Positions 1 to 13,340 of a stretch of 64,000 bases of DNA are shown in pieces; positions within the stretch are counted from its first letter, which is position 1, and each line of letters starts with the position of its first letter. The notes under the pieces were generated by a model. The model was not told the DNA's origin and did no database searches. It saw nothing but the letters and a program-made list of their open reading frames with translations. The DNA is taken from NCBI GenBank assembly GCA_019057385.1, contig JAHQJS010000006.1, positions 517,038 to 581,037 on the forward strand, given 5' to 3'. A program made the position numbers and the translations under genes. The DNA is from Candidatus Borrarchaeum weybense (GTDB lineage: Archaea; Asgardarchaeota; Sifarchaeia; Borrarchaeales; Borrarchaeaceae).

Positions 1-3000
1 CAGTTGTTTTCTTGGTAGTTGTCGTTTCTTTATCTTTAGTTGATACGAAATTTTCGATTTTCTTTGTTGTCGTTTCTTTTGCTTTTCTTCCTTTTTTCTT
101 TTTTAGGGCGAGTTCTTCATCTTTTATCATTTCATCTATCATATCGTTGATAATTGGCTGAACAACAGTCATTATTTCAAGTTTTTCATCAATTATGTGT
201 TTAACAGTTTTTCTTATTTTTGTTATTGAAAATTCCTTCTTTATTGACTCCTTAGACACTTTTTCGAGTAGTAATCTGATATCTTCCTTTAGAATTGTCT
301 CGATTTTTGCCTTTTCGTTGCTTTTTTCAAACTTAGTTTTGATTTTCTGTTCATATTCTACACTCTTTGATGAGACGTCATCTACTAGGGTATCTTTTAC
401 ACTTGTATTGATATATTCTTTCTTAAGAGCAGATATTTTATTATAAACTGAATTTGGAAGTTTCTTTGCGATCGAATTTAAAATTTTCACATTTTTCTGC
501 TTAACTTGAATTAAAGAGTCATCGACAATTTCTACAACACTTTTTGCACAATCTTTCTGAGATATTTCTGCTACTTGTATGATTAGTTCATTCTTTATAC
601 GTTCTTCAGATTTTGTTGCGCATTCATTCAATTTTTCAGTTTCTATTTTGCCTTTCTTACTCTTTTTAATAGGAGTGATAAACTCGCTTTTAATCAATCT
701 TAATGAAGTAGATACAGCCTTTTGAATAGGCATATCAAACTTTTGAACAACTTCTTTTGTTAATTCTTCTTTTAACTTACCCAGTTTCAATTTATCTGTA
801 GTTATTTCAGTATTAATCATGTTCCTTATCACTTGATTGATGATTGAGTTTTCGTCTATCGAATTTTGCAGTTCTTCGATAAAATCAGCTCTACTTTTTT
901 CATTTATAATATTTTGAACATTTTCTTTGATTTGCACAATCAATGATTGTTCTAGATCCGCTACGATTTCTTTGCTGATGCCTCGCATGAATTTCTTTGT
1001 GAATTCTTTAGCAACCATTTTTGCAGCTTTTTCTTTTAAAGAACTAAGTATCTTATTTTGGAAGTGTTTTTTAACGAAATTGTTGATTTCAGCTCTAGCA
1101 GCATCTTTTAGCATTTTTGGAATGTCATTTTGCAGTTTTTCAGATATTGCAGTATCTTCAGATTTTATTTCCGCTTTGACACGATCCACTGAATTTTTAA
1201 TGGTTTCATCCTTGAGGAGTGTCAATTTTTCTATGAATGCCTCTTTGACTTCCTTTAAAATCGGTCTTTCAGTTTCTTTAAGAACATGCGATTTGAGATC
1301 GTTAAAAGACTTTTCTACGAATTTTTTACTGTTTTTAATCAGATTTTGTTTGAACTTTTCATTAACTTTCTCTACATAGATTTTAGAGGCATGAGTAATC
1401 TCCTCTTTAATAATCTCTCTTAGTATCTTTGTTGAAATCTGCCCCTTTCTTTCAACGCTAAGGGATGCATTTAATTTCCTTTCTATGTTGTTTAAAGATA
1501 TTCTTACACGTTCTAGTGAAATCTCTTTGGAATTTTGAAGAATATCAGGCTTAATTTCTGTAGCTATATTCGCAATTAGATTACCTTTGCCATTATTAAT
1601 GATTGTTTGAATAGTGTAGTTTACTATCTTATCGAGAATGTCTTCTACGTTGATATCTTCATCTAAAGTTTCTGGCAACTTTAGAATGAGACGAATCTGT
1701 TGAAGATCGATGTTTTGTTTAAGAGTGGTAAGTCTCTTTGTTGATAGTTGTGTAATTTGAGCCAGATCTTTATTCGGACATAAAAGAAACTCCTTGAGAT
1801 TGTTAATCTCTGCTTCCTTCAAAGGATCTATTAACTCAAGCGGTAATAGTAAATCAATTGGTGTTTCTGTAACTTCCTTAATGAGTTTTAAGTCTATTTG
1901 ACCTTTTAACTGTTGTATTTCCTCGTCAGTTTTCTTCAAGAGCGATGTTAAACGTTGGTTTGGCCAATAAATAAGCATTTTAATAGTTTTTATTCCATCT
2001 TTTTCTAGAGCTTTCCGATAATCCTTAGTCAGGTGAGGAACGATATGTATTGGGAGTGCCAAAATGTTCTTTGTTTCTTCAAGGACATTCCAGTCAATTT
2101 TTTCTTTGATAATAGCTTCTTCTTCAAGTGGAATCAATTCTTCATACGTTAGAACACCTAATCTGTTTATTCTTTTGATAATTGATTTTATTTCTTTTCT
2201 AGAGGCTGCCATTGTGGAAAGAGGAATGGCATGTTCTCTGATTTCTCGTATTTCTAACGGGTTCAAGAAGTCTTTTATTTGATCTATTTCTTGAATTGAA
2301 AGTTGTGTCAACTCTTGAATTGATAGTCCTGGTGTTTGAAGAAATTGTTTAATTGTAGTAATTTCTGCTTCGTGAAGCGATTCAATGACTTCTGGGAATG
2401 AAAATCTAAGTGCAGGAATGTAAGATAACGGGCAATTAAGTTTTTCCTCTATTATTGAGAAATTTAAATTGAGTTTTATAGAACTGATTGATTCTTTGCT
2501 AAAACCTGAAATTTCAGCTAAATCTTCAGCAGGCCAATAAAGGAAAGCTAATATGGATCTGACTCCCCGTTGAACTAAAGATGCAATTGTTTCTGATGAT
2601 TTTGAGTATAATTCGCCAATAAGTGAGACTGGAGAATTGAGCACAGCTTTAATATTTTGGAGAGTCTTCCATGTATCAGAAGGTAACTCATACATCTCTT
2701 GTGTAGCAATCACAACTTCCTCTAGGGTATCAATGTCTATTTCGCTGAGAATACGTCTAACAGAGGAATCTAGACGCGACAAAGAATCAATGGGAATGCC
2801 TTTTTTGATTCTTAGTTCCTTTTTAAACTGTATTATTCGTTCTGCATCTAAATTAGTCACTTGTGCTAGTTCCTCATTAGGCCAATAAAGAAATTGAAAG
2901 ATCGTAGAAATTCCTCTCTGAACCAATTTTCTTATTGCATGAACAGGAACATTTTCCATAATCATTACTGGAGATTCCAGTATTTCTTTAACCCTACTTA

Positions 3001-6000
3001 TTTTTTCCCAAGGAATGTGCGCCGTGAACTGTTCTTTAGTGAGAATGAAGCATTCATCAATTGTGAAAATTCCAGATTGTTCCAAGGCTTTTAGTTCCTT
3101 TTCATCAAATCCTATACTAAGAGGTATGGAAGTACCATACTTCATTTTTTCTTGCTGAATAGCTAAGGGATCTATCTGAATCTTTTTTCTCAACTGCACA
3201 ATCTCGTTGTCATTTACATTTGTTATTTCTTGTAAACTGCTTAATGGAGAAAGAATGAAGTGAATTATTGTCGTAATCCCATTTTTCAGTAATTTCTCTA
3301 CAATTTCAAGATGCTTTTTTAATGAAGGTAAAATTGTAATTGGAGCATTCAAAGTTTCTCTTATTTTGGAAATTAAATCAAGATCTGCACTATGATGTTC
3401 AAGCGTTTCATGTGGAGTGAAATATGCTTCTTCAATTGTATTAATACCCATTTTTTCGAGTTTCTTGAGGGTATTTGAATCTAGATCCAAAAAATTCAGG
3501 GGAGTTCCTTTTTGCTTATTTGAAAGAATTTCTTGCATATCTATTGAATCTTTTAGCGAATCTATTTCTTTTGAACTAATACCTAATTGTTCTAGTTCAT
3601 TTTTTGGCCAAATTAAAAAGTCAATGACCGAATTTATTCCAAATTGAGAAAGTAGAATCTTAGTATGAGGAATCACCCCTGGAAGTGTACCGATATGGGC
3701 GTCTAGGACATCATATATAGGCTTAATTTCTTTCCTTTTCGGATCATTAAGTACTTTAAGTAGCCTTGTTTTTGAGAAATAGAGATCTTCAATTGAAAAT
3801 ATATTGTGTGATCTAAATTCCTGCATTATTTCTTCACTAAAAAGCGCATCTTCAGATATTAAACTTTCAAAAGGCGTCCCGATATTCTTTTTTATTCGTT
3901 TAATCTTTGTAATTGTAAGTCCGTTTATTTTAGATAATTTCTGTACATCTGTAATAAGGAAATCATAGATAGTTCTAATACCTTCTTCTTCAAGGGCATT
4001 CTTGACATGAGGTTCTATCCACATCATTTCTGAGAGCGACTTTGGATGGGTACTATTAAGTTCCTGTACTACCTTTTCTTTAATGTATTGAATAATATTT
4101 GGAATTAAATCTTTGTCTCTTGCGAGATGGGAGTTTGGGTAAAGTAAAAAGTCAAGCTGTGTTAAGATTTTCCGTTTTGTAAACTTCTTATTGATACTTG
4201 ATGTATACCATTTAAATTGGCTAAGTTGTGGCATCCTTTCTTGAGAAATTTGAGCGATTAAATGTTTTTTAAAACTGTCAATGATTTTTAAAGCTATTCG
4301 ATCGATACTTTCGAGTTCATGGGTTGAGAATATGAGAAATTCAGAAACTGTACTAATCCCCATCTCTCTAAGTGAGTTTTCTATATAGTTATCCATCCAC
4401 TCAATTTCATGTATATCTATTTGATGGTCTTGGAAGATTTCCATTATCTTCTTTTTTTCGTTTTCAATCAAAATATGAATCAATTCAGTAACGAATGATA
4501 AATGTGAACTTGGTGTAATGATTAAATCAAGAATCGTGTGAATCTCCTGGCTTTTAAGCTTATTAAATAATTCTTGATCGATCCATGTGATCTCAGAAAG
4601 AGAAAATGAATAGTTCTTGTTTAGATTCTTAATGACATCCTGTTTTATGAAATTAATAAGTCTGATGTTTATTCCCGGAATTGAGGCAATAGTTTGATTT
4701 GGTGTCACTATAAAATCATAGATTGTCCTCATCCATTTCTTATTAAGATATACTTCAATTTCAGAGTCTACCCACTCTAACTGTGCGATACCAGGCGCAT
4801 CTGGGCTTTGTGAGAATATCTTTAGGTTATCACGTTTTACTTGTTCAACGCGATGTGGTGTAAATTTTTCTATTATCGTCAGTTCTTCAGTGGGTGTAGC
4901 TAAGAATTCAAATGCTGATTTGATTCCTATTTTTGATAATTCTTTTTTAATACCGGGATCAAGCCAGTAACCAACATGCGATATGGGTGAAGAGACTGGA
5001 TGTTTTCGTTCAATAATAAGTGGATACCCTGTCATTAACGCCTTTTCAATTTTCTTAGCTTCACTTGACAAATCAACAGGAAGAGTGGTCGGATCCTCTT
5101 GAGTGATTGCAAATAGATTTTGAAGAGTTATACTTGCCCATTTTTCAAATTGAGATGATCTTTTTCTCTCTCGGCGAGCACGCTCAATTCTTGAAAGAAA
5201 GATCCTTACTTGTCTTCCGAGGGCCTGAAGTGCCTTGGTGATTTCATCCCTAATTTCATCTACATCAGCAATATATTCTTTTGAAGTCTCAGGAAATGGA
5301 ATCTTAGTAGAAACAAGCGATACTGCAATGGCCAGAGGATTGTTATCAATATTTATTTTGTACGTTTTCCACTCGACTTCTTTATGAACTACTTTGGAAA
5401 TTACGTCATTCCCTGCACCAAAAAGTAATGGAATTCGATTTGCATATCGATAAATCGTCACACCACTCTTGAGATTGCCTCCGTAAGCAAGGGCAGCTTC
5501 AACAATAAAGGGATGTCCTGCATATGCTGATGCTGGCCGAGTAACTGCAGCAACGAATTCAGGATTGACTCTTTCCTTAAGTCCCTTTTCCAGATTTTCT
5601 GCTGTAAGTGGTGAGAGAGCTACCCCTTCAGGGCTTAAGAAAGTAAATTTTCTTTCAGTTTTTTCTTTTTCTTTTTTAATCTTTTTTTCATCAGGCTTTG
5701 ACTGCAAAAATCCGTCATGAATTATCCTTCGGATCTCTTCACTTGTTAGGTCTCTTGGGTTTTTATTAGGATCGACATTAACTAGTGAAAGAAATTGTTC
5801 TGCCTTTTTTTTACTAACACGTTGGAAATGACGCATCAAAAATTCAATCATATTAGTTGTACCTGTAATATGCGTCGCTGCAATTTCACGTTTTAGTTGA
5901 GTTATATCACATCCCCATGGATGTATCTTTGTGAGTTTTGGATAGGGCGGCATTTCATCAATAACACATTCATAAACGATTGGCTCTTCCTGATCTGGAG

Positions 6001-6766
6001 TTTGAATTTCAAAGCCAGCATAGGGGGTAATAATTGCCAATTCATGAAAATATTCTAGAACCCATTTTTTAGCAAGACGCCAGGAGCCAGTAAACGTGAC
6101 CGTTACTTCAGTTCCTGGTTCACTTAATGCTTCAGGATCTGTTACATCAAGCTTATTTCCTGTGCCTCCTACGATAATTGGTTCATTTTTAGCAAGGTCT
6201 ATCAGGATCTTGAATTTTGAGGTAAATTTTTGAGAAAAATGCCTGCTTTTTACTCTTATGGGAAGATCAACGGTTGCCATGGCATTTAATAAAACCATCT
6301 TTACGCCTAGTCCAAACCTACCCCTTGCCTGTCTTGCACCATAATTAGACCCAGTCAAGACTCGACCAAATAAAGTGGGTATATCGTTAAAAGGCACGCC
6401 AATACCATTGTCTTTTACTGTAAGTTCTAAAAAGTCGAGATGACTCTCAAGGCCCCGAAGTTTGTCTACTTTCAGCAATTCTGCTACTTGATGGCTCTCA
6501 AGAATTTTTAAATTAACGTAAATATTGGGTCGTCTTTTAGCCCATGTTACTAGTTCCTCAGGGATTGCTTTTTCCTGTTTTTTTAATGTTTCGAGCTCTT
6601 TCTCAGCCCGTGCAACTGCTTTTTCAGCAGCATCCAGACCATTTTCAACGAGCTCACGGACTGAAGTAAAAACGCACTTCATGCTGTTGTCGAAACCGGC
6701 GATTGCTTTGTTATCATGGAAGAAATCTGCCGCACTTCTTATTTGAACTTCATCTAATAAGGCCAT
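1..6766 (-). CDS. top6B: Giant DNA topoisomerase VI subunit B paralogue (>2255 aa, runs off the window start): GHKL ATPase and transducer, about 18 tandem HhH/alphaCTD-like repeats, then a long helical tail
   Basis: Absent from the ORF track, consistent with no stop inside the window. ATG at 6766 follows AGAGGA. It reads MALLDEVQIRSAADFFHDNKAIAGFDN..SVRELVENGLDA..VKDNGIGV..TGSNYGARQARGRFGLGVK..YRYANRIPLL..PFPETSKEYIAD. The frame was open in every segment I translated and is still open at position 2. Confidence 0.88.
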   Translation of the reverse strand, partial: MALLDEVQIRSAADFFHDNKAIAGFDNSMKCVFTSVRELVENGLDAAEKAVARAEKELETLKKQEKAIPEELVTWAKRRPNIYVNLKILESHQVAELLKVDKLRGLESHLDFLELTVKDNGIGVPFNDIPTLFGRVLTGSNYGARQARGRFGLGVKMVLLNAMATVDLPIRVKSRHFSQKFTSKFKILIDLAKNEPIIVGGTGNKLDVTDPEALSEPGTEVTVTFTGSWRLAKKWVLEYFHELAIITPYAGFEIQTPDQEEPIVYECVIDEMPPYPKLTKIHPWGCDITQLKREIAATHITGTTNMIEFLMRHFQRVSKKKAEQFLSLVNVDPNKNPRDLTSEEIRRIIHDGFLQSKPDEKKIKKEKEKTERKFTFLSPEGVALSPLTAENLEKGLKERVNPEFVAAVTRPASAYAGHPFIVEAALAYGGNLKSGVTIYRYANRIPLLFGAGNDVISKVVHKEVEWKTYKINIDNNPLAIAVSLVSTKIPFPETSKEYIADVDEIRDEITKALQALGRQVRIFLSRIERARRERKRSSQFEKWASITLQNLFAITQEDPTTLPVDLSSEAKKIEKALMTGYPLIIERKHPVSSPISHVGYWLDPGIKKELSKIGIKSAFEFLATPTEELTIIEKFTPHRVEQVKRDNLKIFSQSPDAPGIAQLEWVDSEIEVYLNKKWMRTIYDFIVTPNQTIASIPGINIRLINFIKQDVIKNLNKNYSFSLSEITWIDQELFNKLKSQEIHTILDLIITPSSHLSFVTELIHILIENEKKKIMEIFQDHQIDIHEIEWMDNYIENSLREMGISTVSEFLIFSTHELESIDRIALKIIDSFKKHLIAQISQERMPQLSQFKWYTSSINKKFTKRKILTQLDFLLYPNSHLARDKDLIPNIIQYIKEKVVQELNSTHPKSLSEMMWIEPHVKNALEEEGIRTIYDFLITDVQKLSKINGLTITKIKRIKKNIGTPFESLISEDALFSEEIMQEFRSHNIFSIEDLYFSKTRLLKVLNDPKRKEIKPIYDVLDAHIGTLPGVIPHTKILLSQFGINSVIDFLIWPKNELEQLGISSKEIDSLKDSIDMQEILSNKQKGTPLNFLDLDSNTLKKLEKMGINTIEEAYFTPHETLEHHSADLDLISKIRETLNAPITILPSLKKHLEIVEKLLKNGITTIIHFILSPLSSLQEITNVNDNEIVQLRKKIQIDPLAIQQEKMKYGTSIPLSIGFDEKELKALEQSGIFTIDECFILTKEQFTAHIPWEKISRVKEILESPVMIMENVPVHAIRKLVQRGISTIFQFLYWPNEELAQVTNLDAERIIQFKKELRIKKGIPIDSLSRLDSSVRRILSEIDIDTLEEVVIATQEMYELPSDTWKTLQNIKAVLNSPVSLIGELYSKSSETIASLVQRGVRSILAFLYWPAEDLAEISGFSKESISSIKLNLNFSIIEEKLNCPLSYIPALRFSFPEVIESLHEAEITTIKQFLQTPGLSIQELTQLSIQEIDQIKDFLNPLEIREIREHAIPLSTMAASRKEIKSIIKRINRLGVLTYEELIPLEEEAIIKEKIDWNVLEETKNILALPIHIVPHLTKDYRKALEKDGIKTIKMLIYWPNQRLTSLLKKTDEEIQQLKGQIDLKLIKEVTETPIDLLLPLELIDPLKEAEINNLKEFLLCPNKDLAQITQLSTKRLTTLKQNIDLQQIRLILKLPETLDEDINVEDILDKIVNYTIQTIINNGKGNLIANIATEIKPDILQNSKEISLERVRISLNNIERKLNASLSVERKGQISTKILREIIKEEITHASKIYVEKVNEKFKQNLIKNSKKFVEKSFNDLKSHVLKETERPILKEVKEAFIEKLTLLKDETIKNSVDRVKAEIKSEDTAISEKLQNDIPKMLKDAARAEINNFVKKHFQNKILSSLKEKAAKMVAKEFTKKFMRGISKEIVADLEQSLIVQIKENVQNIINEKSRADFIEELQNSIDENSIINQVIRNMINTEITTDKLKLGKLKEELTKEVVQKFDMPIQKAVSTSLRLIKSEFITPIKKSKKGKIETEKLNECATKSEERIKNELIIQVAEISQKDCAKSVVEIVDDSLIQVKQKNVKILNSIAKKLPNSVYNKISALKKEYINTSVKDTLVDDVSSKSVEYEQKIKTKFEKSNEKAKIETILKEDIRLLLEKVSKESIKKEFSITKIRKTVKHIIDEKLEIMTVVQPIINDMIDEMIKDEELALKKKKGRKAKETTTKKIENFVSTKDKETTTTKKTT
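1700..4995 (-). repeat. About 18 tandem 55-60 aa protein repeats inside the giant Top6B (HhH-type, RNAP alphaCTD / RadA-Rad51 N-domain-like)
   Basis: Recurring pattern P(I/L)..l...d....k.L...GI.TI..FL..P..eL..i....i..iK, e.g. KKELSKIGIKSAFEFLATP, KNALEEEGIRTIYDFLITD, KKLEKMGINTIEEAYFTP, RKLVQRGISTIFQFLYWP, RKALEKDGIKTIKMLIYWP. Boundaries are approximate. Confidence 0.8.
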
Positions 6767-6791
6767 TGTATTTCCTCTTTAATTAACACGT

Positions 6792-9698
6792 TTAATCAAT
6801 TTCTTCCTTATTATTATCAACTTTTTTCCTTTTTGCTCGTTCTCTTAAACGTTTGATTCGAAAAGCGAAATCTCTGAATTCTTTTTCTCCTTCAAGAATC
6901 TTATGCATGGTCGAAAACTCTTTTCCACGAGAAATCGAAAGAAGTACTTTAGCTATTTCTTTTTCTCCAATTTTTAAAAGAGCAATTTTCGCATTTTCAG
7001 CGATTTCTTTGGGTTCGTTAAGAGCATGTAAAAGAGGTATTATTGATTTAGGTGTCATTTCAGACAATAAGGTTATAAGAATACGTTTTAAATTCGTTGA
7101 ATCCCCTTCAAATGCATTAATTAATGAAGGTATACTGTCTTCACCCATTTTATAGAGAATTTTCATCATATTTTCTTTTATTTCTTTGCTTTTCTCTTGC
7201 TCTAGAGAGGAGATAAGTGGCTGTATAGCATCATCACCTATATTATACAGAATGCGCATTGCATTTAGTTTGATGGTTTCATTTTTATTTCCAAGCGCTT
7301 TGATTAAAGGTCCACTTGCATTTGAATCAAAAGAAGTCAATATTTTCATGACATTTTCAATAAATTTTTTATCTGGATGGTCTAATGACTTGATCAAAGG
7401 TCTAATTGCAGGTGTGCCAATCTGCGATAAGATGTCCTTAATATGCTCAAATAGGGTCTCATCACTTTCTTCTAGTTGTTCTATAAGTGGTTTGATCGTG
7501 TCTTTGCCCAGTTTCACTAAGGTCATTTTGACATTTTTTGCGGAATCAGTATCTTCCACTTCTTTAAGCGTCTCAATAAGAGGAATGATTGTGGGATTAC
7601 CAATTTTATCTAACGCATAAGATGACCAAAGTGCAATATTTTCGTCTGAATCCTTCACACCTTCAAGTAAAGCATCTATAGTATCCTGATCACATTTCTT
7701 TCCCAGTCCTATGACACTCATCCAACGAACATGTTTTTCGTAAGATGGATTTTTTATTCTATCCGCAAAGAAATTCAGGACTTTTTCGTTAATATGATTT
7801 CTTAAGCTCCATGCAGTTATCCAACGAATACGAGGGTTTATATCTTCTGCCATATTGAGTAGATATTGGGTTATTTTTGCATCTTCAAATTTACCTAGAA
7901 GTAAAATCAAATTTTCTCGCAGGTAGTTTAGTTCGGGAAATACATCATTAAGGAATAAAAAGAATTCTTCTTCTTCTTGAATATTAAAAATATCCATTAG
8001 TTTGTAAATTAATTGCTCATAAGTTAATTTACCCATTTCATATTGCTGACATGATTCCTCTAAAGTATCAAATAATTCAAACTCAGGGTACCTCTCCATA
8101 ATCAGTTGCTTTTTTGAATCTGTAAGTGTAATTCTTGGCTTAGGCGGGTCTTGAAGTATTTTAATTAACTTTTCAATAATCACATCCTTATCTAAAAACA
8201 TACCATCAAAATGATAAATGACGTCTTCCTCAGGTAAGTTAAGTACAGTTCCAATCTCTTTAAGTAGCCCCTCGCTTGAGATGCTTCCTGTTTTGTATTG
8301 TTTGAGAATATCTTCAATCGATGGAAATTGCTTGAACTCAGGGAAAATCTTTAAGATAATTTCTTTTTTTTCTTCGACTGAACGGAATTTATCTATTCTT
8401 AATCGAGACACAACGTCTCTCGCATCAGCTCGTATCTGCCATGAGGGCGAATCTAAAAGGCCAATAAGTGGATCTAAAACAATTGGCTCACCGATTTCTC
8501 CCAAAGCTTTGATAGCGCATCTTTGAACATCTATATCATCACTATAATGAAGAAATGGAAGTAATGTATTAATTGATTGACTTACAATCTGAGCATTAAC
8601 TTTAGCGTCCGTTTTTATTTCTGATGGGGCTTCTAGATCATTTAAAAAGACTTGCGTATCCTTTGAAGAACTTATTTCTCCTAATAAGTTAATAGATTCT
8701 ATAAGCTTATCGCTTTTCATTGAAGTCTTTTCACTCTTTTGCAGACTCTCGACCAATGGTTTAATGCCAATTTGACCCATTTGTCGAATGATGTTTTTTG
8801 CGAGAGTTGAAACATCCTTATCCTTATCTTTGACAACATTTAGTAAAAGGGGTGTACTGGCTTCACCTATATGAAGAAGGAGTTTCTCTACATTCCGCCT
8901 GATTATCGGATCAGGTTCTTTCAATCCTTTGATAAGTGTTTTAACACCAGTCTCTCCTATTTCTAGTATAATCTTCTCAATTTCTTCCGCGGTTACATTA
9001 GAAAGACTAGGTTCTTTCAGGACATTCATTAAAGGGCGTACTACCGGTTCTCCGATGTTGATTAAAATTTCTCTAACATCTTGCTTTGTTTTTTGTTTTG
9101 CTATTAGTAGGAGTTCTAATAAAGGATCTACTGCTGGTTTGCCAATTAGAGTCAAGATTTCTTTCGAAGTGTTTCTGATTTCCACACTAGGGTCATCTAA
9201 TGCTTGTATTAGTGATGTGACCCCTGGTTTGCCAATTTGGGTCAAGATTTCTTTAGAAATATTCCTGATTTCTACATTTGGATCTTCTAATGCTCGTATT
9301 AATGAAGGAACTGAAGTCTTTCCTAATTGAATCAAAATGCTTTTTGAAGAATTCCTAATTTCTTCGCTTGGATCATCTAATGCATGTATAAGAGGAATAA
9401 CTGAAGGTTTTCCTATTTCCAATAAAATATCTACAACATTAACATAGATTTGATCATGTGATGTGTTCAAGACTTGAATATAAGTATCAACTGCAAATTG
9501 CCCACGTCTTATGAGGAGTTTTTTAATCCGTGTCACAATTTTTTCATCTTTGTTTTTTAACTCATCAATGAGCCGTTCAATAGTTGAGATATCTTCTTCT
9601 AAGAGTTTCTGTTCAATATCATTAAATGACAAAGCCTTAGGAGATGATTGTTTTTTTTCCGACTTCATTTCATCATTTGACAATTTAAAATCACACAA
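6792..9698 (-). CDS. Large HEAT/PBS-lyase-type repeat protein (968 aa)
   Basis: Many 31-aa repeats such as LIxALxDPxxEIRNxSKxILxxIGK. Sits between top6A and the giant top6B on the same strand. Confidence 0.9.
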   Translation of the reverse strand: MCDFKLSNDEMKSEKKQSSPKALSFNDIEQKLLEEDISTIERLIDELKNKDEKIVTRIKKLLIRRGQFAVDTYIQVLNTSHDQIYVNVVDILLEIGKPSVIPLIHALDDPSEEIRNSSKSILIQLGKTSVPSLIRALEDPNVEIRNISKEILTQIGKPGVTSLIQALDDPSVEIRNTSKEILTLIGKPAVDPLLELLLIAKQKTKQDVREILINIGEPVVRPLMNVLKEPSLSNVTAEEIEKIILEIGETGVKTLIKGLKEPDPIIRRNVEKLLLHIGEASTPLLLNVVKDKDKDVSTLAKNIIRQMGQIGIKPLVESLQKSEKTSMKSDKLIESINLLGEISSSKDTQVFLNDLEAPSEIKTDAKVNAQIVSQSINTLLPFLHYSDDIDVQRCAIKALGEIGEPIVLDPLIGLLDSPSWQIRADARDVVSRLRIDKFRSVEEKKEIILKIFPEFKQFPSIEDILKQYKTGSISSEGLLKEIGTVLNLPEEDVIYHFDGMFLDKDVIIEKLIKILQDPPKPRITLTDSKKQLIMERYPEFELFDTLEESCQQYEMGKLTYEQLIYKLMDIFNIQEEEEFFLFLNDVFPELNYLRENLILLLGKFEDAKITQYLLNMAEDINPRIRWITAWSLRNHINEKVLNFFADRIKNPSYEKHVRWMSVIGLGKKCDQDTIDALLEGVKDSDENIALWSSYALDKIGNPTIIPLIETLKEVEDTDSAKNVKMTLVKLGKDTIKPLIEQLEESDETLFEHIKDILSQIGTPAIRPLIKSLDHPDKKFIENVMKILTSFDSNASGPLIKALGNKNETIKLNAMRILYNIGDDAIQPLISSLEQEKSKEIKENMMKILYKMGEDSIPSLINAFEGDSTNLKRILITLLSEMTPKSIIPLLHALNEPKEIAENAKIALLKIGEKEIAKVLLSISRGKEFSTMHKILEGEKEFRDFAFRIKRLRERAKRKKVDNNKEEID

Positions 9699-9734: not shown

Positions 9735-10898
9735 TTATATCCAATCTGCACTTTCAAGTTTTTGAGGTAGATATTGTTCAGTCATATATTCGAAACCTTT
9801 TGAGGCGAGAGCTTGAATTTCGGCTTTCACACCACTTTTCAACATTGTTTTCAGTTGTTCTGACCATTTTGGTTTATTTTGTAGCCAGGTTTCTTCCAAA
9901 AGTTCTTTTCCTTTTTTCTTGTCAGCGTCCGTTAGAGGAATATAAACCTCTTTCGGTATTTTGTAATTTTCCATATCCTCTGGACGTAAACCTAGCCAGT
10001 ACATATTTTCTGTGACAAGCCAAGGGGTTTCATAACCCAATGCTTTACTCCCAAAGGTATAACTGCGTAAAATCTCAAGTCCGTAAGGATCTGCATCCAT
10101 AATAGCAAATACAGGAATTCCTGTTTCATTTACGATCTTTCGAAGCATCATTCGTGTAGCAATGTCTGGTTGCCCAATGCCAGTTATGAGTATGCATGGA
10201 TATCTCTCATAGATTTTTGCTTCTGAAAGACTCATAAAGGCCGCGTCTTTCTCTACGAGAAGCACAAATTCAGCATCAGTATCGATATTTTCTATTTGAT
10301 CCTGAAATGGTGTGATAGCTTTTCCGCCTGTTCCCATTTTAGAACAATCGATAAGATCACCACTTTCAACAAAACTAATTCTACCAATAATTTTCCCTTT
10401 GGCAGATGCAACAATATTAGTAGCATTTCTAATAGTTCTCAAGGTGACTGCAAGATCTTCTATCGCACGATCGCTGACAGTTTGATCTTCGAAAAGATTT
10501 ACATCGGTATAAAAGAGTTCACGTTTAGTAGAATGACGTCCTAAAGTGAGAAGTTCATGAATTCCATCAGCTACACGAATCAAAACAGCTAATTGCCTAA
10601 CACTTGCTGGTGTTAGCGATCGAGTTACCATATTATGACCAAGAAAAATATGTCCTGTCTCTTCATCAACAATTGTATTCTGTGCACTTCTAATTGGGAC
10701 TGATACACGAGGTTTTTCATCAAAGTCAAGTAAACTTAATAGATTTAATGCAATATCCTCGATACTCTGTTTTGTTTCTTCTAGTGAAAGTTCTTGGATT
10801 TTCAATGCATCTTTTGGTGCCTTTATCATTTCTTTTTCTACTTGTTTTAATTGCTTTATTCCTTCAATTAACTTCAAGTTTTCATCTGAATGGCTCAT
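9735..10898 (-). CDS. top6A: DNA topoisomerase VI subunit A (Spo11 family)
   Basis: STKRELFY (catalytic Tyr), TOPRIM motifs VEKDAAF and DADPYG, KAEIQAL. Overlaps top6B by 4 nt. Confidence 0.96.
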   Translation of the reverse strand: MSHSDENLKLIEGIKQLKQVEKEMIKAPKDALKIQELSLEETKQSIEDIALNLLSLLDFDEKPRVSVPIRSAQNTIVDEETGHIFLGHNMVTRSLTPASVRQLAVLIRVADGIHELLTLGRHSTKRELFYTDVNLFEDQTVSDRAIEDLAVTLRTIRNATNIVASAKGKIIGRISFVESGDLIDCSKMGTGGKAITPFQDQIENIDTDAEFVLLVEKDAAFMSLSEAKIYERYPCILITGIGQPDIATRMMLRKIVNETGIPVFAIMDADPYGLEILRSYTFGSKALGYETPWLVTENMYWLGLRPEDMENYKIPKEVYIPLTDADKKKGKELLEETWLQNKPKWSEQLKTMLKSGVKAEIQALASKGFEYMTEQYLPQKLESADWI

Positions 10899-12568
10899 GA
10901 ATACTCACTCTCGATTATTTTAATCAATTTTTGATTTATTTCAGATTCAGACATTGGTATTCCTTTTGTTATTCTTGCTAAGGATATTGCTAGTTGATTA
11001 GCATGATCGATTAGTTTTTCAAGTTCTTTTTCTTTCTTTTTTTCGGCCTCTTTACGTGATATGTATGTCTTAACGCCCCTGAAAGCCTTTTGCATGCTTA
11101 ATTTGATTGTTTCGCGTAACTCATCATAATCTGCAATGAAATCTTTCGCAGCATCTTGATAGGGTATTCTTGTTGACACAACACTCACCATAACTGTGAC
11201 CCCGTGCACATTTATGTCGATATAGCGTTTAATGTTAGCCTCTTCAAGTGCCTTATAGCAAACATCACTTCGCTCTTTGAAGAGAAGTGGAATTCGATTC
11301 GCAAATCTATAAAGTGCGACACCAACTGGAATTTTGCCTCCCCATGCTACGGAAGTAGTAATATGCACAGGATGTCCTTTAATAGAAATAATTTTACCCG
11401 TAACACTGTTAATGTATTCTGGCTCTAAAAGATAACTCGCTGCTTTTTCTAAACTTTCATGAGGCAAAATTGAAAGACAACTGCTATCTGGAGCTGGAAA
11501 ATCTTCGTAAGAGGACATTGCTTGTGACAATTTAAAAATATGAACGTCATTTAATTCATTAAGAGGCATATTTGGATCTATTTCTACTTTGTAACGCAAG
11601 AATTTTTTTGCTGTCCCTTCTCCAATGCCTTGGAAATCAAGCATGAGAAACTCTGCTAAAGTAGGGTATCCCTCTTTTTGTTCGCTTTTAAAAACATATT
11701 TTTTTGGGTATCGTTTCACCATTTCTTTCAATTCTTCAATATCAATTCCATGTGGATGAGATTTCGTTTCTGTCGGGAGAGGGGGAATTTCATCCGTTAC
11801 TCGTCTAAAGAGGTACTTCTCATCACCAATCACTAACCGAAAATTTACATAAGGTGTAACTAGAGCTAATTGCCTAAAATATTCCAAAATGCGTTGCTTC
11901 GCCCAAACCAAATTGCCACCGAAGTATAGTCGCATTCTTAAGCCATGCCAAGGTTTGTCTGGAATAATGCGTTGTGCTGAATAAATCGGAGAATTCGATT
12001 TAAGATCTATTCTGATACGAAAATAACTTTCTTCTGCCTCTTCTCTTGTAGCCGACCAGATTTCCGTATCCAAACCCGTTGTTCTTTGAGCATGTATCAT
12101 CGCCATCTTAGCACCCATACCAAACCGTCCTCTTCCTTGTTTGATTCCGTATTTCGTGCCTGTAAAAACAGTGCCAAAGACTAAGCTAACGAATTCATGA
12201 TGGATTCCAGGGCCATTATCTTCCACTTCGATAACATAGTTTTTTTCACTTGGATCAAAATCAGTCTCGAATTCCTCAATGCCGTCTAAGCCCGACCCAG
12301 ATCCAATATCATCCAAGTTTGCTAGTATTTTTTTACGAATGAGTTCATGACTGACTGGTTGGATGACAATATTGATGTTTGGATATATTATTTCCTCTCC
12401 GCGTATCTGAAGCTTTTGAATATCTTCGTCACATGCATCTAGACTGTTTTCGACCAATTCTCTTACACTAGTAAAAGTGCTCTTTCCAGGATTGTCAAAA
12501 CCTGCAATTTCGGAATTTTCTTTAAACCATTGGGCTGCCGATAGGGTTTCTACTTTATTCGAAGTCAT
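10895..12568 (-). CDS. top6B: DNA topoisomerase VI subunit B (canonical length)
   Basis: ELVENSLDA, EDNGPGI, GTKYGIKQGRGRFGMGAK, YRFANRIPLL, and transducer Lys motif AAKDFIAD. Confidence 0.95.
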   Translation of the reverse strand: MTSNKVETLSAAQWFKENSEIAGFDNPGKSTFTSVRELVENSLDACDEDIQKLQIRGEEIIYPNINIVIQPVSHELIRKKILANLDDIGSGSGLDGIEEFETDFDPSEKNYVIEVEDNGPGIHHEFVSLVFGTVFTGTKYGIKQGRGRFGMGAKMAMIHAQRTTGLDTEIWSATREEAEESYFRIRIDLKSNSPIYSAQRIIPDKPWHGLRMRLYFGGNLVWAKQRILEYFRQLALVTPYVNFRLVIGDEKYLFRRVTDEIPPLPTETKSHPHGIDIEELKEMVKRYPKKYVFKSEQKEGYPTLAEFLMLDFQGIGEGTAKKFLRYKVEIDPNMPLNELNDVHIFKLSQAMSSYEDFPAPDSSCLSILPHESLEKAASYLLEPEYINSVTGKIISIKGHPVHITTSVAWGGKIPVGVALYRFANRIPLLFKERSDVCYKALEEANIKRYIDINVHGVTVMVSVVSTRIPYQDAAKDFIADYDELRETIKLSMQKAFRGVKTYISRKEAEKKKEKELEKLIDHANQLAISLARITKGIPMSESEINQKLIKIIESEYS

Positions 12569-12635: not shown

Positions 12636-13340
12636 CTATACTTCCTTAGAACTGTTATCATCCTCTATTTGAACCTTAAAAATCTTACTAATGAGATTTG
12701 CTCTCGCATTTAGAATGTTCTCATCCCATAGCCTATTAACAAAGAGCTTAAACACATGTTCCATCGCATATGCTACATGTCCTCTTCCAATAGTCCTTCT
12801 TTGAGTGAGAAACATAATACTAACCAGTTCTTGACACAAAGCATCAAGCATTTCCTTAAGGTATTGGTCAGAAACCTCTATAAGTGCCTTTTTAGCCTCT
12901 CCACTTGTGTAGAAACTTGTATTAGCTATATCTGCCATTTTTGCTCTCACATAATTCACAATTGGTGACATAAATACAAGGCGGCGAGTGAGTGCTTCCT
13001 CATCGAATACATCTTCGTCTAATTCTAAACTGAGTTCATCATCAAAATCAATGTCAAAGCTGGATTCCTCTGTTGATGCTTCACCATCCAGAGGTAACTC
13101 ATCGCCTTCTTTCAATTCAGATTCATCAGGTATCTTTTCATCGGTGTGAAATTCTTCATTGTTATTTGAAATTCTATCCACCTCCACTGTTTCAGAAACA
13201 TATTGGATATAAACACCAACATTTATCAAGTTTCCGCTCTGAAAACTAATTATATCTGGCTTGTAAACGAGTTTTTCAATTAAATCTCGTATATCATGCA
13301 CGTATATATACTTAGAAAAATGAAGAGATGCTATGAGCAC
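12636..13340 (-). CDS. Histone-fold protein with an acidic N-terminal extension (true start probably near 13170)
   Basis: LVFMSPIVNYVR...SGEAKKAL...ELVSIMFLTQRRTIGRGHVAYAM resembles the archaeal histone pattern (P...I...S.eA..AL...A.RKTI...DI..A). It is preceded by a D/E-rich tract, and a GGAGGTG SD-like motif lies near 13180. Confidence 0.6.
   Translation of the reverse strand: MLIASLHFSKYIYVHDIRDLIEKLVYKPDIISFQSGNLINVGVYIQYVSETVEVDRISNNNEEFHTDEKIPDESELKEGDELPLDGEASTEESSFDIDFDDELSLELDEDVFDEEALTRRLVFMSPIVNYVRAKMADIANTSFYTSGEAKKALIEVSDQYLKEMLDALCQELVSIMFLTQRRTIGRGHVAYAMEHVFKLFVNRLWDENILNARANLISKIFKVQIEDDNSSKEV

Follow-up and report, generated by a model that had tools for sequence, protein, structure and literature searches.

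What kind of protein begins as the B subunit of DNA topoisomerase VI (Top6B) and then continues for more than about 1700 residues? The question is raised by a stretch of 64,000 nt from Candidatus Borrarchaeum weybense (contig JAHQJS010000006.1, G000:C6:517038-581037; the whole stretch is called the window here), at whose first edge a giant minus-strand gene encodes a Top6B core followed by an array of helix-hairpin-helix (HhH) units and a lysine-rich tail. Top6B is treated in published work as a protein of 500-800 residues, and the giant is four times as large as normal; topoisomerase VI (Topo VI) is the main archaeal decatenase, and the Spo11/TOPOVIBL machinery of eukaryotic meiosis descends from it. 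Our analysis indicates that the giant is a real, conserved and probably active B subunit of Topo VI. The reading that we prefer, with a probability of about 0.7, is a Topo VI formed by the giant B subunit and a Top6A with a ubiquitin-like (Ubl) N-terminus, in which the acidic arm would serve as a spacer or docking scaffold and the basic tail as a tether. Support for the identity of the enzyme is good, while the functions given to arm and tail are what we infer.

The giant reading frame and its topoisomerase VI core

The open reading frame (ORF) occupies window positions 2..6766 on the minus strand and comprises 2255 codons from the ATG at position 6766, with no in-frame stop and an open 3' end. 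The default ORF listing omits it, because the frame leaves the window edge, and a listing that admits open-ended ORFs recovers the frame of more than 2255 codons described in the original prediction. A Shine-Dalgarno-like GAGG precedes the ATG by 8 nt, and the spacing from the ATG to the stop of the upstream gene, which encodes a HEAT-repeat protein, is 25 nt only; both would fit co-transcription. The parts of the gene, all on the minus strand, are as follows.

2..6766, minus strand: giant Top6B gene, in-window part (open ORF; continues past an assembly gap to a stop)
6774..6777, minus strand: Shine-Dalgarno-like GAGG (sequence)
6032..6766, minus strand: GHKL (Bergerat) ATPase domain, residues ~1-245 (profiles, alignment)
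6344..6346, minus strand: codon of Asn141 (GSNY) in the loop beside the ATP lid (alignment)
5633..5938, minus strand: H2TH region with a Lys-rich insert, residues ~277-378 (1mx0 alignment)
5159..5632, minus strand: transducer, residues 379-536, with RYANRIPL (N443), WKxY (W466-Y469) and the switch Lys496
about 1679..4975, minus strand: array of 18 (HhH)2-like units of 53-69 residues each, residues 598-1696 (hidden Markov model, HMM, and AlphaFold2, AF2)
65..1678, minus strand: Lys/Glu-rich region, residues 1697-2234 (conserved in the closest relatives only)
44..64, minus strand: KKIENFV, residues 2235-2241, in a basic context, similar to the PCNA-interacting protein (PIP) box (motif comparison)
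2..40, minus strand: start of a K/T-rich tandem tail of KKTT(T)G units (sequence; interrupted by the gap)

Immediately before the window start lies a scaffold gap, a run of 100 N (G000:C6:516938-517037). Extending the translation beyond the window, as had been advised, shows that the frame resumes past the gap (C6:516826-516937) with three copies of KKTTTKKTTG followed by KNKRKTSR and a stop, about 37 extra codons. Since K/T-rich coding sequence resumes there, the giant gene is split by the gap inside a 30-nt coding repeat, and its product has at least 2292 residues. A complete homologue with 92% identity (P0005) has 2282 residues and an identical ending. As a side observation, a gap in the 30-nt KKTTTKKTTG repeat splits or truncates the giant gene in the assembly, and gene finders would mis-call it.

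The gap, together with the metagenome type of the assembly (estimated contamination 7%, completeness 100%), could suggest that an ordinary Top6B was misassembled onto a separate HhH-repeat gene, but we give this explanation practically no credence. The junction of core and repeats is 5 kb away from the gap in uninterrupted sequence, the same fusion recurs in 55 protein clusters, whose sources are many different assemblies and include single-contig genomes that have giant frames of 2312-4305 residues, and the sequence is present in four sediment metagenome runs, all of one study.

The N-terminal part, of which about 570 residues had been proposed to form a complete Top6B, stood up well to profile searches. 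Residues 1-585 contain a complete Top6B with all catalytic boxes, residues 7-562 match NCBIfam NF003218 Top6B (429 bits, cut-off 274), and residues 379-536 match the Pfam family Topo-VIb_trans (PF09239; 183.5 bits). The alignment to S. shibatae Top6B (1mx0; 281 bits) spans the GHKL, H2TH and transducer domains, residues ~277-352 being aligned to the H2TH domain; the assignment to a type IIB topoisomerase subunit is thereby upheld. With TIGR01052 the giant scores 355.4 and its short neighbour, a second Top6B, 318.8, both under the cut-off of 380.7. Aligned to S. shibatae Top6B, the Bergerat boxes of the giant are the N-box ELVENGLDA (E38, N42), the G1 box DNGIG (D119), the lid GRFGLG and a G3-type GT (PGTEV).

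We aligned the catalytic residues of 55 giants and 121 short Top6Bs. E38, N42, D119, the glycine loops, N443, W466/Y469 and the switch K496 are invariant across the giants. At the third position of G[ST]KY, 52 of 54 giants have Asn and all 121 short proteins have Lys. The contrast between GSNY in the giant and GTKY in the neighbouring Top6B, noticed in the original prediction, turns out to be clade-wide, and GSNY is a clade-defining signature of the giants. By alignment index Asn141 corresponds to K98 of S. shibatae; this lid-loop Lys, though conserved, is not among the named defining boxes of Top6B. Loop 97-106 rearranges upon nucleotide binding, contacting the ribose and the beta-phosphate, and this rearrangement lets the N-terminal strap of the partner subunit lock the dimer (PMC1616964). 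The contact of the lid-loop Lys is taken here from that description of the loop, because a GyrB paper (PMC4159350) makes no mention of K103. Most likely, the change from Lys to Asn would tune ATP turnover or dimerisation rather than abolish them.

The helix-hairpin-helix array and the tail

The approximately 18 diverged repeats that had been placed at 4995-1700 correspond closely to the 18 units found here. They start at residues 598, 662, 725, 787, 850, 913, 972, 1027 and 1091 (units 1-9) and 1147, 1216, 1269, 1328, 1385, 1452, 1521, 1575 and 1637 (units 10-18). By a leave-one-out HMM, 16 units score 12-52 bits, with unit 7 at 7.6 and unit 16 at -0.8, and the top score of 356 shuffled units is 7.2. 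Units 1-6 have a Trp at position 4 in common and a period of 62-63 residues; in units 7-18 an FLxWP type alternates with a second unit type, so that the FL.WP motif reported for near-alternating units is found in units 8 (FLIWP), 12 and 14 (both FLYWP) and 17 (LIYWP).

Comparison with alphaCTD, the N-terminal domain of RAD51 and the NusA acidic repeats had been proposed as a check, and the units match these domains both by sequence profile and by predicted fold. At the level of the whole protein, the giant matches RAD51D_N with 86.3 bits against a cut-off of 27.3, RNA_pol_A_CTD with 31.1 bits against a cut-off of 23.8, and also HHH_5 and NusA C-terminal repeat families; taken singly, seven of the 18 units match RAD51D_N. 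A profile of the 18 units run against the PDB finds alphaCTD as the best match (1doq, E 3.5e-4), then NusA and more alphaCTD chains, and RAD51-N (1b22, E 0.01), almost the entire list belonging to the same fold class. The precomputed domain on homologues is PF26169 HHH_XRCC3_RpoA.

AF2 models of the array were made from alignments of 27-30 homologues. Units 1-6 (391 residues) have a mean predicted local distance difference test (pLDDT) of 89.7 and a predicted template modelling score (pTM) of 0.80, and units 7-14 (474 residues) have values of 86.8 and 0.81, respectively; each unit has four clear helices and a short Trp-bearing turn with a pLDDT of ~90. The models suggest that the units pack as one defined, stiff body and not as beads on a string. 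In an exhaustive structural comparison of single units, the best match is Rad51-N (3lda, Z 7.1, root-mean-square deviation 2.9 Å over 64 residues), other matches are RAD51D (9q25_D, Z 6.8) and alphaCTD (4mex, Z 6.4), and lesser ones are NusA acidic repeats, DisA, XPF/Hef and the related SAM fold. The 6-unit model had no Foldseek match in the PDB at E <= 0.001, and a shape search of the ESM-Atlas gave local HhH matches only (template modelling score 0.20-0.25) and no analogue of the whole array. The core is fused in one frame to these HhH/alphaCTD-like units, with no stop between them.

The pattern of conservation was determined for 322 units of 15 giants. The first hairpin, G-I-x-T, has G in 52% and I in 80% of the units, while the Gly of the second hairpin is retained in approximately 30%. 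Other conserved positions are the hydrophobic core, an Asp/Glu at position 16 and a Lys/Arg at position 40 near the unit end, which is basic in 86% of the units. This pattern suggests that the conserved Lys/Arg could pair with the acidic residue at position 16 in a structural salt bridge. The array carries a net charge of -23 with an isoelectric point (pI) of 5.7, and in relatives the charge ranges from -41 to -104 with a pI of about 5.

These data bear on the possibility that the arm is a non-specific device for binding or wrapping DNA, comparable to the tandem (HhH)2 domains of Topo V or to the C-terminal domain of GyrA, and changes the topological output or the processivity of the enzyme. 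The units share their fold with DNA-binding modules of alphaCTD, RAD51-N, XPF/Hef and Pol X, the first hairpin and the basic residue near the unit end are kept as given above, units 5, 10, 12 and 17 are basic, and in solved Topo VI-DNA complexes the DNA arms follow Top6B along its exterior (PMC13040014). However, the array is net acidic in all giants examined (pI 5.0-5.7, net -23 to -104), the second hairpin has mostly lost its Gly, the conserved basic residue seems to be paired with a conserved acidic one, and NusA AR2 and RAD51 paralogues use the same fold for protein-protein contacts. We therefore consider a DNA-wrapping arm of the Topo V kind unlikely: the array is acidic, and what it conserves is core, hairpin and a D/K pair instead of a basic face, which disfavours this part of the original prediction and favours a tether or scaffold. 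By analogy, the array resembles the partner-binding members of the fold (NusA acidic repeats, RAD51 paralogues), and the arm might still make weak multivalent contacts with DNA.

The region behind the array had been described as more than 550 residues of Lys/Glu-rich sequence ending in K/T-rich low complexity, and its composition agrees with that: residues 1697-2255 contain 17.2% K and 11.4% E, with a net charge of +20, a pI of 9.3 and a K/T low-complexity end. The tail matches no Pfam family at E <= 0.1, gave no usable match in the protein atlas, and is alignable only among the closest relatives. It was also considered as a series of degenerate HhH units; the repeat HMM gives just two matches near zero bits, and this candidate was rejected.

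Near its end the tail carries a motif that looks like a PIP box and is treated here as putative; the consensus used for comparison was Qxx[LIVM]xx[FY][FYWLM] near a terminus. All five close relatives have the form [KT]x[IL][ED]xF[VIM], embedded in basic sequence that precedes the KKTT(G) or KKTP(A) repeats. The canonical Q..L..[FY] is found at the C-termini of P0010, P0018, P0030 and P0031, and distant giants end, after a basic run, in QKSLNAF, QKSLDEY or GRLDAYM. PCNA genes are present in the genome, the normal PCNA of 262 residues being on C8. There is also a second, weaker PCNA_N match (46 bits) in a 335-residue frame (G000:C6:637907-638230, plus strand), possibly a PCNA paralogue or fusion.

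Gene neighbourhood and distribution of giant Top6Bs

Top6A and Top6B are each encoded by two genes in this genome, and no more. The four genes are clustered on the same strand, in the order short top6B, short top6A, HEAT gene, giant top6B, gap and the Top6A gene P0060. The neighbours of the giant gene, all on the minus strand, are:

L004:1483-2871 (G000:C6 about 515364-516752), minus strand: Top6A P0060, 463 residues, ~70 nt past the stop of the giant
6792..9698, minus strand: HEAT-repeat protein of 968 residues between the two Topo VI pairs (HEAT_2, 169.9 bits)
9735..10898, minus strand: short Top6A, 387 residues, partner of the short Top6B, with a 4-nt overlap of the two genes
10895..12568, minus strand: short divergent Top6B (P0004), 557 residues, GTKY (profiles, tree)

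A Top6A of 391-471 residues directly follows the giant in five loci of other lineages as well (L006-L009, L011), and the sister species (L009) has the identical five-gene order with a complete giant of 2515 residues. The pairing of a giant B gene with a Top6A gene is thus kept across Asgard classes. P0060 is 51-55% identical to giant-linked Top6As from three distant lineages (with the Ubl region covered in two), versus 46% to the Top6A of the short pair in its own genome. The N-terminal ubiquitin/SUMO-like region of P0060, residues ~1-80, matches Rad60-SLD with 32.9 bits and ubiquitin with 31 bits, both above the Pfam cut-offs. A Ubl domain was also seen on giant-linked Top6As of the Hodarchaeales-type locus and of the locus with a 4185-residue giant, and was absent beside a 3140-residue giant (L007). 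Complex prediction for the Ubl domain and units 1-6 gave a score of 0.00, which speaks neither for nor against binding.

The HEAT gene occupies the same position in the sister species, where its product has a faint Cnd1/condensin-type match; the HEAT protein is a possible partner of either Topo VI. In the tree, P0004 and two close relatives sit on a very long stem (1.46 substitutions per site), away from the giants, and outside its own group P0004 has best matches of 36-39% identity labelled Njordarchaeia, Korarchaeota and Thermoproteota. The short pair is the divergent extra copy, its Top6B branching among non-Asgard-like sequences, and this divergence suggests an old transfer or fast evolution. 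Directly upstream of short top6B is an ORF at 12636-13340 (minus strand), which was originally read as encoding a histone fold behind an acidic N-tail; in the sister species this position is taken by a gene for 187 residues (L009:3464-4027).

Homologues of the giant (P0001) form 55 protein clusters of 1306-3590 residues that cover 31-100% of the query and are labelled Hodarchaeales, Heimdallarchaeota, Promethearchaeota, Thor and Odin. The Thor and Odin labels probably stem from older binning; as a whole, the database labels of the homologues lead to the Heimdall group and Hodarchaeales.

A survey of extended Top6Bs in Asgard archaea had been recommended; we ran a transducer model against 332 Asgard genomes and counted by hand among the 150 best matches listed. 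Frames of ~2200-4300 residues were found there in about 50 of the 332 genomes, from six GTDB families; for at least four of the six, nearly every genome yields no Top6B match besides the giant. A tree built from 60 Top6B cores unites its 27 giants in a single clade with a support of 100 in the SH-like approximate likelihood-ratio test (SH-aLRT). Compared with distant giants, the core has ~52% identity and the array units are colinear at ~25%. The extension varies: in Hodarchaeales-type giants HhH units occupy all of it up to the C-terminus, and in the 4185-residue relative 27 units are detectable by the repeat HMM.

We also searched 1.84 billion representative proteins with the profile of units 1-6 and found the array to be rare: E <= 1e-3 was reached by only 111 proteins and E <= 1e-30 by 33. 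The long matches among those listed extend to 4341 residues, and many others are short enough for fragments. Of eight mid-size matches that were scanned, one is a Top6B of 1074 residues whose array is short, and three are unrelated proteins with tandem alphaCTDs. The latter (P0206, P0228 and P0230; 1031-1218 residues, without the Top6B core) carry ten tandem alphaCTDs, two strong stretches and six tandem alphaCTDs, respectively, and one of them also has sigma-70 region 4 and a HARE-HTH domain; such arrays therefore exist in other contexts. Loki-type Top6Bs (1010-1250 residues, f19-f21) were considered as carriers of short HhH arrays and rejected, having no match to the repeat HMM or HhH families. 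The single Top6B of this type has its extra length before or inside the core, the transducer being at residues 722-867 of 1126 and 935-1101 of 1249 (L010 G156:C1 and L012 G109:C11, respectively), and is a separate route to enlargement.

The distribution reverses the polarity of the original description, in which the giant was a paralogue: its clade extends across the Asgard archaea, many families have no other Top6B, and a Top6A of its own adjoins it. That it is the B subunit of the Asgard-conserved Topo VI, and not an odd paralogue, is well supported. The original prediction contained neither the Ubl-Top6A partner nor the assembly gap nor the PIP-like motif of the tail. According to the searchable text of PMC12680538, there is a conserved Asgard Top6A/B pair closest to eukaryotes and some Asgard lineages carry extra Top6A/B copies related to other archaea; the pattern of giant and short copies fits the pair phylogeny given in that text.

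The same data make it very unlikely that the giant is a non-catalytic pseudo-enzyme with a Top6B-shaped domain, serving a structural or chromatin role while the short pair is the working Topo VI. The Lys-to-Asn change in the lid-adjacent loop, the existence of the second, short pair and the adjoining HEAT protein, which hints at a structural assembly, would be compatible with such a role. However, none of the other residues for ATP binding, Mg, anchoring and switching varies within the clade, a dedicated Top6A adjoins the giant in every locus examined, and in the families where the giant is the only Top6B match it must supply the Topo VI function.

No match to GyrA (PF00521) was found in this genome, the completeness of which is estimated at 100%. 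In two relatives gyrase genes are located directly upstream of the giant (gyrB-gyrA in the Hodarchaeales-type locus L006 and gyrA in L008), and neither locus has a second Topo VI; here, by comparison, the short pair is present and GyrA is not detected. In this genome, too, a type II topoisomerase occupies that upstream position, here the short Topo VI pair. In its searchable text, PMC9348778 suggests that Top6B extensions accompany gyrase; a giant Top6B without GyrA does not fit this proposed link well.

A proposed tethered Topo VI and its relation to known enzymes

In Topo VI structures the end of the transducer is placed beside Top6A, so that a pair of arms would extend from the enzyme's base. 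We propose that the giant B subunit and P0060 would form an A2B2 enzyme that passes one duplex through another with ATP, and that the clade-specific exchange of Lys for Asn in the lid-adjacent loop probably retunes ATP turnover or dimerisation. From each transducer end, near Top6A, an arm of 18 (HhH)2 domains would project as one continuous body and act as a long spacer or docking scaffold; the arm is read in this way because it is acidic and its conserved residues appear to be structural. Through its basic tail the enzyme would be held on DNA or chromatin, and perhaps on the sliding clamp, so that decatenation takes place where it is required.

Several observations weigh against this reading. 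The assembly gap interrupts the C-terminus of the giant, and no RNA run containing the stretch was found among the sequencing runs searched. With Asn at the position of the lid-loop Lys, the ATPase behaviour may differ or be weak. Four units of the array are basic, and alphaCTD, RAD51-N and Topo V are cases in which HhH-type domains bind DNA. That the arm is stiff is predicted from the AF2 pTM, and structural Z scores of 5-7 are middling for small helical domains, although they agree with the sequence evidence. Finally, KKIENFV has neither the canonical Gln nor the second aromatic residue of a PIP box.

The giant has the same GHKL-H2TH-transducer core as canonical Top6Bs (S. shibatae 1mx0/2zbk_B, ~530 residues; M. 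mazei 2q2e_B, 621 residues), and shares with them the N, G1, G2 and G3-type boxes, the anchoring Asn, WKxY, the switch Lys and an adjacent Top6A gene. It differs in the C-terminal extension of ~1700 or more residues, where canonical proteins have a short helix or a 100-residue Ig-like domain, in Asn in place of the lid-loop Lys, and in a partner Top6A with a Ubl N-terminus. Giants of the Heimdall group (~2311-2318 residues in Hodarchaeales, up to ~4300 in others) belong to the same clade, and have GSNY and a downstream Top6A; in contrast to them, the array here ends at 18 units and is followed by ~540 residues of Lys/Glu-rich sequence and KKTT(G) repeats.

Topo V of Methanopyrus kandleri is a type IC enzyme with 12 tandem (HhH)2 domains, a train that functions as a DNA-binding and repair module. 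The giant is similar in having a topoisomerase core followed by a long tandem (HhH)2 train, whereas its core, the ATPase subunit of a type IIB enzyme, is unrelated and its array is net acidic. Topo V chains were absent from the 50 best structural matches, which leaves room for a similarity. In alphaCTD, RAD51 and RAD51D N-terminal domains and NusA AR1/AR2 the likeness is to single units, in both sequence and fold; those domains occur in one or two copies for contacts with DNA or partners, while here 18 follow each other head to tail in what is predicted to be one rigid body.

Giant Top6Bs are already public under the sole database name 'DNA topoisomerase VI subunit B', and our literature searches found no description of their architecture. 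In their searchable text, Villain et al. 2022 (PMC9348778) report that Asgard Top6B has lineage-specific C-terminal extensions, a 'globular domain'; for Asgard TopoVIB a CTD is listed by Brinkmeier et al. 2022, and PMC12680538 describes multiple Top6A/B pairs; the same searchable text of these three sources mentions neither a Top6B of 2000-4000 residues nor an HhH array. New here are the shortened array of 18 units with a distinct Lys-rich tail, the coexistence of the giant pair with a short Topo VI pair and a HEAT protein in the absence of detectable GyrA, and the clade-wide Lys-to-Asn signature quantified against 121 short Top6Bs.

A broader picture, possible though doubtful, is that the Asgard-conserved Topo VI as a whole, which is the only Topo VI in the sampled families of the Heimdall group, is a tethered decatenase: a stiff arm of 18-50 (HhH)2 domains with a PIP-bearing basic tail would keep the enzyme on the sliding clamp or chromatin, and a Ubl domain on Top6A and a retuned lid loop would regulate it. 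If true, such an enzyme would have built into it a counterpart of the regions, accessory and C-terminal, by which eukaryotic type II topoisomerases are regulated. The genome of Candidatus Borrarchaeum weybense offers a natural experiment in this respect: giant and short pairs stand side by side, and the arm of the giant is shortened and its tail different.

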